Part shown: piece by piece, positions 203-8,571 of the stretch | Layout: each line of letters opens with the position of its first letter | Position numbering within the stretch: the stretch's first letter is position 1 | Assembly (NCBI GenBank): GCA_965237675.1 | Contig: OZ250150.1 | Location: 5,408,001-5,472,000, forward strand | Length of the DNA: 64,000 bases | Direction of reading: 5' to 3' | Source: Candidatus Latescibacterota bacterium | Lineage (GTDB): Bacteria > Latescibacterota > UBA2968 > GCA-2709665 | The notes under the pieces: generated by a model | The model's input: only the letters and a program-made list of their open reading frames with translations | Database searches by the model: none | Told to the model about the DNA's origin: nothing | Program-made: the position numbers and the translations under genes

Positions 203-1609
203 TCAGGATCTCTCTTTTGCCAGTTCGTACTTTCGGTAGAAATGGCGAAACTGATCGTAGCTCAGACTGAGCGAATCGGCCGCCTTGCGCTGGTTCCAGT
301 CTGCGCGGTTCAGCGCGCTCCTGAGTAGCCCGAGTTCAAAGCCCTTGACCTGGGCGTCGAAACCGTCTCCCGGTGGCGCCGGAGCCCCGCGGAAGATTTC
401 GGGCGGCAGATCGCGGGGTTCGATGGATGCGCCCGCGGCCATGCACGCGGCGCGTTCGACGGCGAATTTGAGCTCGCGCACGTTTCCGGGCCACGGGTAC
501 CTCAACAGGTGGCGGAGGGCGCTTTCCGAAAACGGACGGACCTCGAGTCCCGGCACCTCCCTGACGATCTGTTCAACAAAAAACACGGCAAGCGGCTGGA
601 TGTCTTCACGCCGTTCACGGAGGGGGGGAATGCGAATAATCTCAAAGCGGAGGCGGTCGTACAGATCCTGACGAAAGCGGCCTTCGCTGATTTCTCGTTC
701 AAGATCGGCATTCGTGGCGGCGATGATTCGGACGTCCACCAGGGTGGGCGTGGCGCCGCCCACGCGTTGAATTTCCTGGTACTCGATGGCGCGCAGGACG
801 TTCTGCTGAAATTCCGGTGTGGTGTTGCCGATTTCGTCCAACAATAGTGTACCGCCGTTGGCCGCTTCAAATCGGCCGGGACGGGCTTCCGTGGCTCCGG
901 TGAATGCGCCTTTTTCGTGGCCAAAGAGTTCACTTTCGAGCAGATTGGCGGAGAGGGCGGCGCAGTTGACTTTAACGAAGGGACGATCTCTCCGTACCCC
1001 GCCGTAATGGACCGCGGCGGCCACGAGTTCCTTCCCGGTGCCGGGTTCGCCGAAAACCAGTACCGGCCGCGGGATGGAGGCAATGCGCTCGGCCTGCCGC
1101 ATAATCCGCAGCATCCGGGGACTGGCGTTGACCGGCCTGTATTTCTTGCCGAATTCGTCCCGATAGAAACGATTCTCCCGGTCCAGATCCTTTACCTGGG
1201 CTTGCAGCCGGACATTCTCCCTGAGGACGGCGAGTACGCGGTCGAGTTTTTCCAGGCTGAGTTCAAGCCGGTCCTCAATATAGAAATCCTTTTCGATAAA
1301 GTCGGAGGCGCCCATGCGCAGGGCGGCAACGGCGTTTTCCACGGTACCCTTGCCCGTGAGGATGATAACCGGCAAATCGGGCGCAAGGTCGCGAATTTGC
1401 CGGAGGATTTTCAGACCGTCCGGCTCGGCCGGGCCAAAGTCGATATCCAGAATGGCCATGTCTACGTCCGAAACGTGCTCTCGCAGGTATGCAAAGGCCT
1501 TCCTTCCCGTCGGAAAGGCCCTCACGACCCGGCCATCCACCTGAAGGCTTCGCTTGAGCATATCGAGGATTTCGGGCTGGTCATCCGCGATGACGATTTG
1601 AGCTCTCAT
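203..1609 (-). CDS. Sigma-54-dependent activator: receiver domain + PspF-like AAA+ domain + HTH
   Basis: REC motifs IADD, ILDID, LTG and K; Walker [15 protein letters not shown]; PspF-like [14 protein letters not shown] and [20 protein letters not shown]. Confidence 0.9.
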
Positions 1610-1612
1610 GGA

Positions 1613-3241
1613 TTACTCGATGAATTCTTCGGCCAGGGGCAGCCGCAAGGCAGAAAGAGGATCGCCGCTCCAGCCGATGGTATCGGTTTCGGAGACGAGT
1701 TCGAAGTCCACCGGAAGGTCGATGCGGAACACGGCGCCGGCGCCCGGACGGCTGATCATGCGCAGGCTTCCCCTGTGGGCGGATACAATGCGTGAACAGA
1801 TGCTGAGGCCGAATCCATTGCCCTTTTCTTTGGTGGAAAACCCGGGATCGAAGATCCTGGCCTGAATCTCTTCGGATATGCCGGGTCCGTTGTCTTCCAC
1901 TTCGATAAATACCGACGCCCGCTTATTGTCATAGCCGGCCTGTACTGTAACCGCGCCATTCTCATCTACTGCGTCCAGGGCGTTGAGAATCAGGTTGGTG
2001 ACGGCTTCACGCAGCATGCCCGGATCGACCGTGACCTGGGGAACCTGCGGTTCAGAAGCGAAGCGAAGCGTTACGCCGCCGGTCTGCGTCGAGACGGTCT
2101 CTTTAATTTTGCCCACGAGTTGCGGAATATCCACAAGAGAGGGATTCAACGGATCCTGTTTCATGCTGCGCAGATAGGCGACCCACTGGTCGTAGATATG
2201 TTCCTGGTCGCGGGCGATGTCTCGGAGGTCGTCGAGATGGGTGTTTTCCCGGGGGGCGCTTCGAATGAGCCGGCGCGTACGGCTCCCGACCAGACCCATC
2301 AGGTTTTTGATCTGGTGACCCCGCGTATATAGGCTCTCTCCCACCTGCACGCGTCCCAGGTCGATGAGTTCAAGGGACAGGCGCGCCAGGACCGAGGCGG
2401 CCTGTCCGCCGAATTCTTCGATGATGGACGTATATTCCTGTTCCATCTGGGCCGAACTACTGTGGTCAAAAAGAAGATGTGCCAGGTTTCTGTAGGGCAG
2501 CGCGTAGTCCGGCTCGAGCTGAATGGCAATTTTGAATGCGCCCAGCGCCTGAAGGGTCTGACCGGTCTGCATGAGCAGAACGCCAAGGTTGTTGTGGCCC
2601 GGGGCGAACAGCGGATTTGCTTCCAATCCGCGGCGGTACACCCAGACGGCTTCATCGATGTTTTCCGGAAGGTCGTCCAGAAAGCTGGCAAGCAAGAAGC
2701 AGGTACCGTCGACATTGGTGAATGGCACGCCCCGGTCCACGGCCTGGAGAATATAGCGAAGCGCTTCAACCGCCTGTTGCCGACCTTTCGATCCCGTGCC
2801 CGCGCCTTCGGCCTGCAAGAGCGCCAACTGAAATCGCGCCTCCAGATGGTCGGGATTACGGACAGTGGCGGCTTCAAAAGCGTCTAAAGCTCCCTTGTCG
2901 CCCCCTTTCAACCGGCAGAGGCCTATCTTGAAATGCAAGTCCGCACCGTGATTCGCCGTAAGACAGAGGCAGCGCCTAAAGCCGGCTAGCGCGTCCCGCC
3001 AATTGCCCTGCCTGTAGTAGACAACACCCAGGTTGTGCCGCGCTCGAACACTCTCCGCATCGGCGGACAATGCCAACCGGTAGGCGGCCTCGGCCCTAGG
3101 CAGGTCGCCGGTTTCCATCGCGTTGTCGCCGTCGCGGCAAAGCCGCCGAGCCTCGGCATTTTCAGATTCCGGCAGCGTCTGTGCGATGCCGATACGGTCG
3201 GCCGGGGTCGACGCTTTGTCGGGTCTTTGAGGCGGGTTCAA
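1613..3241 (-). CDS. Soluble TPR-repeat sensor histidine kinase
   Basis: N-terminal TPRs (ARHNLGVVYY, GHNNLGVLL); H-box GHQIKN; N-box NLILNALDA; DNGPGI; FSTK; GFGL; no TM helix. Confidence 0.88.
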   Translation of the reverse strand: MNPPQRPDKASTPADRIGIAQTLPESENAEARRLCRDGDNAMETGDLPRAEAAYRLALSADAESVRARHNLGVVYYRQGNWRDALAGFRRCLCLTANHGADLHFKIGLCRLKGGDKGALDAFEAATVRNPDHLEARFQLALLQAEGAGTGSKGRQQAVEALRYILQAVDRGVPFTNVDGTCFLLASFLDDLPENIDEAVWVYRRGLEANPLFAPGHNNLGVLLMQTGQTLQALGAFKIAIQLEPDYALPYRNLAHLLFDHSSSAQMEQEYTSIIEEFGGQAASVLARLSLELIDLGRVQVGESLYTRGHQIKNLMGLVGSRTRRLIRSAPRENTHLDDLRDIARDQEHIYDQWVAYLRSMKQDPLNPSLVDIPQLVGKIKETVSTQTGGVTLRFASEPQVPQVTVDPGMLREAVTNLILNALDAVDENGAVTVQAGYDNKRASVFIEVEDNGPGISEEIQARIFDPGFSTKEKGNGFGLSICSRIVSAHRGSLRMISRPGAGAVFRIDLPVDFELVSETDTIGWSGDPLSALRLPLAEEFIE

Positions 3242-3266
3242 TCGGTGACTCCTGGATGAAGCGCGA

Positions 3267-8449: not shown

Positions 8450-8462
8450 TATGACAAGAAAA

Positions 8463-8475
8463 AATCACGTTGTTA
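8463..8475. promoter_or_regulatory. IHF-like binding site
   Basis: AATCACGTTGTTA vs consensus WATCAANNNNTTR (1 mismatch), with an A-tract on its 5' side, between the promoter and the UAS. Confidence 0.5.
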
Positions 8476-8535
8476 ATAAGTGTCGGTATTTACTCATTTT
8501 ATCCTGACCACAGATACGGGGTTGTCAATGGCTAT

Positions 8536-8571
8536 TGGTGAAAAACGCCATACGCAAGGCGAAAACAACCG
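8536..8571. promoter_or_regulatory. Putative PspF-type upstream activating sequences (tandem)
   Basis: TGGTG-AAAAA-CGCCA (8536-8550) and degenerate AGGCG-AAAAC-AACCG (8557-8571), 21 bp apart. Confidence 0.5.

Follow-up and report, generated by a model that had tools for sequence, protein, structure and literature searches.

The 64,000-nt stretch of DNA described here (the window) comes from a Candidatus Latescibacterota bacterium (GenBank assembly GCA_965237675.1, contig OZ250150.1, positions 5,408,001 to 5,472,000 of the forward strand) and carries a gene cluster headed by pspA, the gene for the effector of the phage-shock protein (Psp) response. The list of open reading frames (ORFs) of the window places nine head-to-tail ORFs on the minus strand between 203 and 8341, which confirms the nine co-directional genes that an earlier note on this DNA had described (Table 1). 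The pspA stop codon is overlapped by the start of the following gene, which encodes a membrane protein of 213 amino acids (aa), and three bases separate the stop of the histidine kinase gene from the start of the activator gene.

Protein families support the names that the earlier note had given to pspA, the extracytoplasmic function (ECF) sigma factor, the flotillin, the tetratricopeptide repeat (TPR) kinase and the receiver-bearing (REC) activator, but not its PspB-like and PspG/LiaI-like labels for two small membrane proteins. Pfam and NCBIfam scans assign no family above cut-off to the 213-, 71-, 89-, and 219-aa products.

Table 1. Features of the pspA locus, in window coordinates (TM, transmembrane segment; HTH, helix-turn-helix; UAS, upstream activating sequence)
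Feature	Position	Strand	Basis
pspA	7664-8341	(-)	225 aa from ATG at 8341; PF04012 158 bits
2TM winged-helix membrane protein, 213 aa	7030-7671	(-)	Fold model, hydropathy; no family above cut-off
1TM coiled-coil protein, 71 aa	6788-7003	(-)	Hydropathy, conserved motif RLTD[IV]QD[VI][ML]I
2TM protein, 89 aa, possibly 58 aa from internal Met	6424-6693	(-)	ORF, hydropathy
ECF sigma factor	5817-6443	(-)	Sigma70_r2, Sigma70_r4_2, TIGR02937
NfeD/YqiJ/YuaF-type membrane protein (probable), 219 aa	4935-5594	(-)	Weak Pfam NfeD, Atlas leads, TM segments
Flotillin (SPFH/Band 7), FloT-like	3267-4781	(-)	PF01145 94 bits; N-terminal TM
Soluble TPR histidine kinase	1613-3241	(-)	TPR models, HATPase_c, H-box His309, N/G1/F/G2 boxes
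REC-AAA+-HTH sigma-54 activator	203-1609	(-)	Response_reg, Sigma54_activat, AAA_lid_14; D9/D10, D55, T85, K107, GAFTGA
Sigma-54 -24/-12 promoter CGGTACGGTCCTTGC	8434-8448	(-)	GG at 8446-8447, GC at 8434-8435; conservation
Candidate enhancer (UAS), two TTTC[AG]CC half-sites	8537-8564	(-)	Genus-level conserved block; putative function
Second conserved intergenic block, dyad-like	8608-8639	(-)	Conservation; putative function

Conserved core and lineage-specific insertions

The conserved unit of the locus consists of a sigma-54 promoter, pspA, the 2TM winged-helix protein, zero to five 1TM coiled-coil proteins, the TPR kinase, and the REC-AAA+-HTH activator. Related loci were defined as the 80 recovered with an alignment of the kinase. 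The pspA gene lies upstream of the kinase gene on the same strand in 76 of these, and the remaining four are contigs cut within 2.6 kb of the kinase. The full layout from pspA to the kinase-activator pair is present in eight out of nine loci of families f1 and f2, and all 10 loci of the sister family f4 carry pspA, the 2TM protein, the kinase, and the activator, with a 1TM protein in eight. The earlier note had made its proposal depend on gene order being kept in relatives, and for the core it is kept.

The prevalence of the module varies across the phylum. A PspA orthologue is present in all 41 genomes of the order of the window, and kinase homologues at E<=1e-30 are present in 99 of the 168 genomes of the phylum, including 20/21 genomes of f1, 28/31 of f2, and 49/76 of f4. 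The match in family f3 (one of three genomes) is weak and probably not an orthologue, and the 36 genomes of ten further families yield no kinase homologue at this threshold. Two kinase orthologues contain in-frame stops (two TGA codons in G028 C77:129802-131151; one stop in L016:2480-4177) and may be pseudogenes or assembly errors.

The remaining genes are less constant. The ECF sigma gene is present in 43 of the 80 loci and absent in 37, and the pair encoding the NfeD-like protein and flotillin is present in 33, always alongside the ECF gene (33/33), and absent in 47. Among the nine f1 and f2 loci, eight have the ECF gene and five have the pair; none of the 10 f4 loci has an ECF, NfeD, or flotillin gene. 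Because they are missing from f4 and from many of the 80 loci while the core is kept, the ECF gene and the NfeD-like/flotillin pair are lineage-specific later insertions in the order of the window, the pair in part of that order only.

The sigma-54 promoter upstream of pspA

The promoter CGGTACGGTCCTTGC has two mismatches to the sigma-54 consensus. A consensus search in the window alone is uninformative, as 40 matches with at most two mismatches are found where 60 are expected, and the site is not significant by itself. Despite this, the promoter is accepted because it is conserved across relatives. A GG-N10-GC site with at least 8 out of 10 consensus bases lies 63-139 nt before the pspA ATG in 74/74 related loci, and at least 9 out of 10 bases are matched in 68/74 loci compared with 19/1540 random 250-nt control windows. 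The test covered loci in which pspA is present and preceded by 200 nt or more; three with too little upstream sequence and four without pspA were left out. The genome encodes rpoN (430 bits) and 12 bacterial enhancer-binding protein (bEBP) genes. This conservation argues decisively for a sigma-54 promoter before pspA, as the earlier note had proposed, with a transcription start that is predicted.

Two further blocks upstream of the promoter are kept in f1 and f2 but not in f4. The half-sites of the candidate UAS are 21 nt apart and precede the -24 element by about 90-115 nt. Pairs of TTTC[AG]CC spaced by 21-22 nt are found in f1 and f2, and at least two half-sites occur within 400 nt in 23/73 loci compared with 4.7% of 720 background windows. 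In the second block, an AAGACAA core is shared by 29/73 loci, family f2 included. A TGTC-N7-GACA dyad is present at this block in most members of the genus and is degenerate in the window; it was rejected as a general element because it is genus-specific (9/74 loci, eight of them from the genus of the window). Rfam contributes no family at E<=1 in window positions 1-10000, and simple sigma-70 and terminator scans of positions 1-9000 gave nothing decisive.

The activator and its relationship to PspF

The activator consists of a receiver (Response_reg, 75.6 bits, residues 5-112), a central AAA+ domain (Sigma54_activat, 209 bits), and an AAA_lid_14 domain (80 bits), and a hydropathy scan finds no hydrophobic segment. 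The acidic pair D9/D10, the phospho-acceptor D55, T85, and K107 of the receiver, as well as the GAFTGA motif, are kept in 8/8 orthologues. As the receiver has all the phospho-acceptor residues, the natural reading is that the protein would work as an NtrC-type response regulator, which supports the proposal of the earlier note that a PspF relative is under phosphorylation control. Named-family models do not discriminate; PspF (TIGR02974) scores 339.2 bits against a cut-off of 443.55, and AtoC (339), NtrC (337), and NifA (335) are also below their cut-offs.

Phylogeny of the AAA+ domain is more informative. A first, carefully searched tree comprised 13 bEBPs of E. coli K-12, 12 from the genome of the window (one gene entered twice owing to overlapping loci), and 14 orthologues of the activator; E. 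coli PspF joins the clade of the activator and its orthologues (the focal clade) with support of 100/99. With 40 of the best 150 library representatives added, PspF and the focal rows fall in a clade of 26 rows (SH-aLRT 99). A third tree of 151 rows included 78 additional metagenome bEBPs, 17 of them receiver-less activators divergent from pspA(BC). It contains a 50-row clade (SH-aLRT 100) made up of 18 canonical PspF, 12 focal, 13 library, and 7 metagenome rows, while none of the other bEBPs from E. coli (10) or from the genome of the window (10) is included. Canonical PspF forms a separate clade of 22 rows (SH-aLRT 100), and a further clade (SH-aLRT 98), beside canonical PspF and not inside it, unites the focal rows.

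E. coli PspA holds PspF through the YLW patch of Y51, L52, and W56, as described in PMC3791423. L52 and W56 are present in 22/22 rows of the receiver-less, pspA-adjacent canonical clade and in 0/12 focal rows, and Y51 is kept in 9/12 focal rows. The gene arrangement also differs. Receiver-less canonical PspF is divergent from pspA in 17 metagenome loci among the 80 matches listed, whereas the activator gene is the last of a same-strand cluster. No receiver-bearing PspF relative beside pspA outside the phylum is among the metagenome matches listed; all 17 pspA loci of the 80 have receiver-less PspF.

The activator is therefore best described as a PspF relative and not a strict PspF orthologue, because it scores below the NCBIfam cut-off, lacks the YLW patch, and is co-directional rather than divergent. 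The identification as PspF in the earlier note holds in that the AAA+ domain groups with PspF and not with NtrC, ZraR, or AtoC; it fails for orthology in the strict sense. Receivers are common in the wider clade: of its 13 library representatives, 12 are extended at the N-terminus by ~150 residues that can be aligned to a receiver. Receiver-bearing activators of ~460 aa in the PspF clade represent at least 12 distinct clusters at 50% identity (P0001-P0033), and their receivers have in common with the focal protein an unusual LDLxLGxG(E/R)xxG motif.

The histidine kinase and its predicted contact with PspA

The kinase matches HATPase_c (85 bits) and many TPR models, and a hydropathy scan detects no hydrophobic segment. 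His309, within a YTxGHxxKN motif, and the N, G1, F, and G2 boxes are invariant in 13/13 sequences. Residues 307-513 align to the dimerization and histidine phosphotransfer (DHp) and catalytic (CA) domains of ZraS (E 7.8e-23), and the closest named families are AtoS and ZraS, which are partners of sigma-54 response regulators. The TPR stretch at residues 203-256, directly before the DHp domain, is almost invariant.

As a soluble kinase needs a protein ligand, PspA was chosen as a candidate and co-folded with kinase residues 95-345, with alignments supplied for both chains. The three runs gave ipSAE values of 0.77, 0.76, and 0.78, and the best of three controls gave 0.00; the ipSAE mark used is reached by 58/80 solved complexes and 2/110 mismatched pairs, counts that apply approximately here because custom alignments were used. 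At least 95% of contacts are common to the runs, with a partner pLDDT of at least 79. The predicted interface joins kinase residues 203-212, 228-244, and 272-277 to PspA residues 8-10, 41-62, and 109-123, and its columns are invariant on both sides. In f4 orthologues, 23 of 25 PspA interface residues are identical at 63-67% overall identity. The number shared falls to 13/25 and 9/25 in the two other PspA paralogues of the same genome, and to 7/25 in E. coli PspA. Recall of a solved PspA-kinase complex is unlikely because the PDB relatives of PspA are entries with PspA or Vipp1 only. These results support, short of showing it, the predicted binding of PspA to an invariant TPR surface of the kinase. 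By likeness to the PspA-PspF pair, the favoured assumption is that bound PspA would inhibit the kinase.

PspA and the small membrane proteins

PspA belongs to PF04012 (158 bits against 33.9) and covers profile positions 1-217 of 220; its score against the TIGR02977 equivalog (180.1 bits) is below the cut-off of 242.95. The genome has two other paralogues. The second PspA (42% identical; C1 ~2.22 Mb, L225:7179-7877) is encoded by a solitary gene flanked by PhyH dioxygenase and XdhC/CoxE-type genes. The third (C1 ~1.09 Mb, L226:6675-7376) adjoins genes for CesT_Tir_1 (156.8 bits) and DUF4178 proteins, a context matching the CesT/Tir-PspA dyad described in PMC11237479.

The 213-aa protein has TM segments at 72-90 and 100-125 and no named relatives in family scans. 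Its AlphaFold2 model (mean pLDDT 78.7) shows a C-terminal, cytoplasmic winged helix at residues 151-206 (pLDDT 85-90). The top Foldseek matches are all winged-helix proteins (best E 9e-3), with none at E<=0.001, so that the winged-helix label of the earlier note is supported by fold but not by a family or a significant Foldseek match. An ESCRT-II winged-helix match (3cuq_A, rank 47, rmsd 1.5 over 60 columns) is a curiosity only. The gene follows pspA in 76/76 loci that hold pspA, and because of this coupling the protein is likely to be a membrane partner of PspA.

The 71-aa protein has one N-terminal TM segment and a cytoplasmic coiled coil, and is present in zero to five tandem copies per operon across the 80 loci. 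It is undetected in 2/10 f4 loci and in five pspA-holding loci of the 80. The protein resembles PspB in this architecture only. Homology with PspB was rejected as unproven: none of 24 members matches Pfam PspB (PF06667) at E<=10, and hhalign with the lone sequence of E. coli PspB gives a probability of 14%, although a PspB profile might be more sensitive. The 89-aa protein has two TM segments, and its gene is detected almost only in loci with the ECF gene. Homology with PspG or LiaI is likewise unsupported, as its matches at E<=10 are limited to HisKA_4TM (below cut-off), DUF6232, DUF3185, and DUF4282. Both homologies suggested in the earlier note are thus not supported, while the absence of pspC that it reported is confirmed: Pfam PspB and PspC have no match in the whole genome, which is 99.9% complete.

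The ECF sigma factor, NfeD-like protein, and flotillin

The sigma factor contains regions Sigma70_r2 and r4_2 and belongs to the sigma70-ECF superfamily (TIGR02937, 101.8 bits against 42.9). Its best named matches are SigW models at 121.5 bits, compared with an equivalog cut-off of 209, and the RpoE and SigM equivalogs are also below cut-off. Inspection by eye revealed no ECF/SigW-type promoter (AAC-N16/17-CGT) ahead of pspA or the nfeD-like gene. The ECF-nfeD spacer (5595-5816, minus strand) contains a genus-conserved block around TTTGTGTTGACGCAGAGAATATTCTATATCACATTTCGC and, after it, a hairpin with T-run (5607-5619); the NfeD-like/flotillin pair may have its internal promoter or leader here.

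The 219-aa protein is probably of the NfeD/YqiJ/YuaF type. It has at least three TM segments by hydropathy, its gene adjoins the flotillin gene in 33/33 loci, and Atlas leads of 0.94-0.96 include an 'NfeD family' cluster (0.95) and clusters that are partly YqiJ_OB/YqiJ_N or NfeD_TM (0.94). The match to the Pfam NfeD C-terminal domain is weak (E=0.16, 12.6 bits against 29.1). The nfeD label of the earlier note is therefore probable from the Atlas leads and gene pairing, although the Pfam score is below cut-off. The flotillin has a TM segment at 1-28 and a Band_7 domain (PF01145, 94.2 bits), scores below the FloT cut-off (NF058507, 143 bits against 700), and finds no E. coli K-12 match at E<=0.001.

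Neighbouring genes

A cell-wall hydrolase gene with LysM and Amidase_3 domains and a signal-anchor segment lies at 8717-9838 on the plus strand, divergent from pspA. It is a conserved divergent neighbour of pspA in families f1 and f2 only, with one to three LysM-like segments in different genera. The gene may share the intergenic control region with pspA, and the UAS half-sites could also serve it. A 913-aa ORF at 9880-12621 (minus strand) resembles, by eye, a heavy-metal P-type ATPase with two CxxC metal-binding motifs and a CPC motif.

Proposed mechanism and alternative explanations

The locus probably belongs to a Latescibacterota-wide module for the Psp envelope-stress response whose two-component switch is encoded within the pspA operon itself. 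In such a module, the kinase would autophosphorylate on His309 and pass the phosphate to Asp55 of the activator. The phosphorylated activator would assemble on the upstream sites and open the sigma-54 promoter, raising the levels of PspA, its membrane partners, and the kinase-activator switch itself. Feedback and sensing may both operate through PspA, as the invariant TPR surface of the kinase is the predicted binding site for the α1/α2 hairpin of free PspA. PspA that is drawn to damaged membrane would polymerize there, aided by the 2TM winged-helix and 1TM proteins; its hairpin surface would no longer be free and the kinase would be released. Where the ECF gene has been inserted, it would be a sigma-54-driven output that could widen the regulon.

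The proposal that PspA feeds back on the kinase, such that the pool of free PspA sets activator phosphorylation, and that receiver-less proteobacterial PspF is a derived short-cut, is more tentative and is put forward as an attractive possibility rather than an expectation. The short-cut is suggested because the PspF clade is mostly receiver-bearing (12 of 13 library representatives); within it, proteobacterial PspF would have lost its receiver and gained the L52/W56 patch.

Several observations weigh against a self-contained, PspA-sensing switch. The relative G016 (locus L015, C1:1009200-1021000) keeps pspA, the 1TM and 2TM proteins, and the amidase at a locus without kinase or activator, and its genome has no kinase match at E<=1e-30. 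The switch is therefore dispensable there, in what looks like a natural loss. The enhancer sites are candidates, their half-site pattern is not found in f4, and the spacer that holds them is common to the divergent amidase gene. The activator scores 17.9 bits against HTH_8, whose cut-off is 22, and the kinase has no Pfam HisKA match. The AAA+ trees are built from one domain, support within the PspF clade is weak (<=82), and the second and third trees used a quick search under LG+G4. The PspA-kinase contact is a matter of model confidence, and the sign of regulation is a guess. The phylum is uncultured, and the interpretation rests on sequence comparison and predicted structure.

The alternatives differ mainly in which protein is taken to receive the signal and in which genes are taken to belong to the response. 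One holds that the TPR array senses the coiled-coil tail of the 1TM protein or the winged helix of the 2TM protein, and not PspA. TPR domains commonly bind helical peptides, the cytoplasmic motif of the 1TM protein is unusually conserved, and the 2TM winged-helix protein is present in every complete locus. On the other hand, the 1TM protein goes undetected in two of the 10 f4 loci and in five pspA-holding loci of the 80-locus set, and the invariant TPR surface is already explained by the PspA model, so that sensing through the membrane proteins is on the unlikely side, albeit compatible with the PspA-responsive switch. Alternatively, the canonical logic could be retained, in which PspA binds the AAA+ domain of the activator and the receiver and kinase provide a second input. 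This fits the position of the activator in the PspF clade, the retention of Y51 in most focal rows, and a second PspA site on PspF proposed in PMC6003685. The absence of L52 and W56 from all 12 focal rows, when all 22 canonical PspF rows have them, and the placement of the predicted partner surface on the kinase make it quite improbable.

The earlier note had read the locus as a merger of three control logics, with PspF/sigma-54, a SigW-like ECF factor, and a two-component system jointly controlling pspA, nfeD, and flotillin. In such a scheme, the ECF factor would co-regulate pspA and flotillin in the manner of SigW in Bacillus. All of these gene types are indeed present in the window, the best named matches of the ECF factor are SigW models, and the NfeD-like/flotillin pair is restricted to loci with the ECF gene. 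Those matches are nevertheless far below the equivalog cut-off, no anti-sigma gene is recognized, and no AAC-N16/17-CGT promoter was seen by eye. The insertions are missing from many loci (the ECF gene from 37 of 80, the pair from 47, both from all 10 f4 loci), whereas the sigma-54 promoter is universal. The merger is not borne out and is regarded as unlikely. The suggestion that the kinase and activator form a generic NtrC-type pair that lies beside pspA and regulates something else can draw on the nearly equal, sub-cut-off scores of the PspF, AtoC, NtrC, and NifA models (335-339 bits). It is very hard to reconcile with a linkage that persists in two orders of a class, the detection of a conserved sigma-54 promoter before pspA only, the position of the activator in the PspF clade, and the specific conservation of the predicted PspA-kinase interface, and can be given almost no weight relative to a dedicated pspA switch.

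Comparison with known systems

The enterobacterial PspF-pspABCDE system shares the sigma-54 promoter before pspA, an AAA+ domain in the PspF clade, PspA as the effector, and, by prediction, a PspA feedback element that uses the α1/α2 hairpin. In that system, the coiled coil of PspA(1-144) binds the W56 loop of PspF, according to PMC6003685. The Latescibacterota locus differs in that a receiver is present, L52 and W56 are absent, the activator is at the operon end instead of divergent, the kinase is a soluble TPR protein, the genome has no Pfam PspB or PspC, and the predicted PspA target is the kinase. The Bacillus LiaFSR-LiaIH system offers another parallel, with a PspA homologue under two-component control and small membrane proteins as possible anchors (PMC11237479, PMC9239133). 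LiaS is a membrane kinase, LiaR is a REC-HTH protein acting with sigma-A, and LiaF is an inhibitor, in contrast with the soluble TPR kinase and sigma-54 AAA+ activator found here; a LiaF/Toastrack protein is absent and the 89-aa protein has no LiaI match.

The Bacillus SigW regulon includes pspA-ydjGHI and yuaF-floT. This regulon and the neighbourhoods of PspA with band-7 and YqiJ/YuaF genes, a theme described by Ravi et al. 2024 (PMC11237479), similarly link PspA, flotillin, and NfeD/YuaF-type proteins to envelope stress. These operons have CesT/Tir or other partners and are without a sigma-54 or two-component switch, while the flotillin pair is optional here (33/80). In Pseudomonas syringae, the sigma-54 activators HrpR and HrpS drive expression of the ECF sigma factor HrpL (PMC4145663). 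This cascade is a precedent for an ECF gene in a sigma-54 operon without a recognizable anti-sigma factor, although HrpL belongs to a different ECF group, functions in type III secretion, and is driven by receiver-less activators. NtrC, ZraR, and AtoC, with their kinases NtrB, ZraS, and AtoS, have the same REC-AAA+-HTH architecture, and the DHp/CA region of the kinase is closest to AtoS and ZraS. The differences are the grouping of the AAA+ domain with PspF, the kinase input from a cytoplasmic TPR array, and the target, pspA.

Surveys of Psp neighbourhoods report PspF variants with ACT or PAS domains, Toastrack partners, band-7/YqiJ-YuaF operons, and REC-HTH two-component systems (PMC11237479, PMC9239133). 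A receiver-bearing PspF or a TPR kinase is not named in the covered parts of these surveys, and the PspF of D. vulgaris is described as receiver-less (PMC4641369). The literature consulted yielded no description of a receiver-bearing PspF with a histidine kinase, of phage shock in Latescibacteria, or of a PspA-sigma-54-tetratricopeptide system. The kinase-switched pspA operon is thus a wiring that was found undescribed for the Psp response, and PspA as a kinase ligand would be a mechanism so far unpublished.

Significance

PspF is the textbook example of a sigma-54 activator without a regulatory domain, controlled in trans by PspA. The lineage described here is a sister of PspF that is still tied to pspA and appears to be controlled in cis by a receiver, and its partner is a kinase with an input domain predicted to read PspA. 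If that prediction is true, the lineage would represent an evolutionary intermediate for the origin of in-trans control, and PspA would be the first ESCRT-III-family protein to serve as a histidine kinase ligand. The system is compact, with three proteins and one promoter, and its reconstruction in E. coli could then address how membrane stress becomes a cytoplasmic signal, a question that is still open for the classical Psp system. The locus also provides candidate functions for two uncharacterized membrane protein families of an uncultured phylum.

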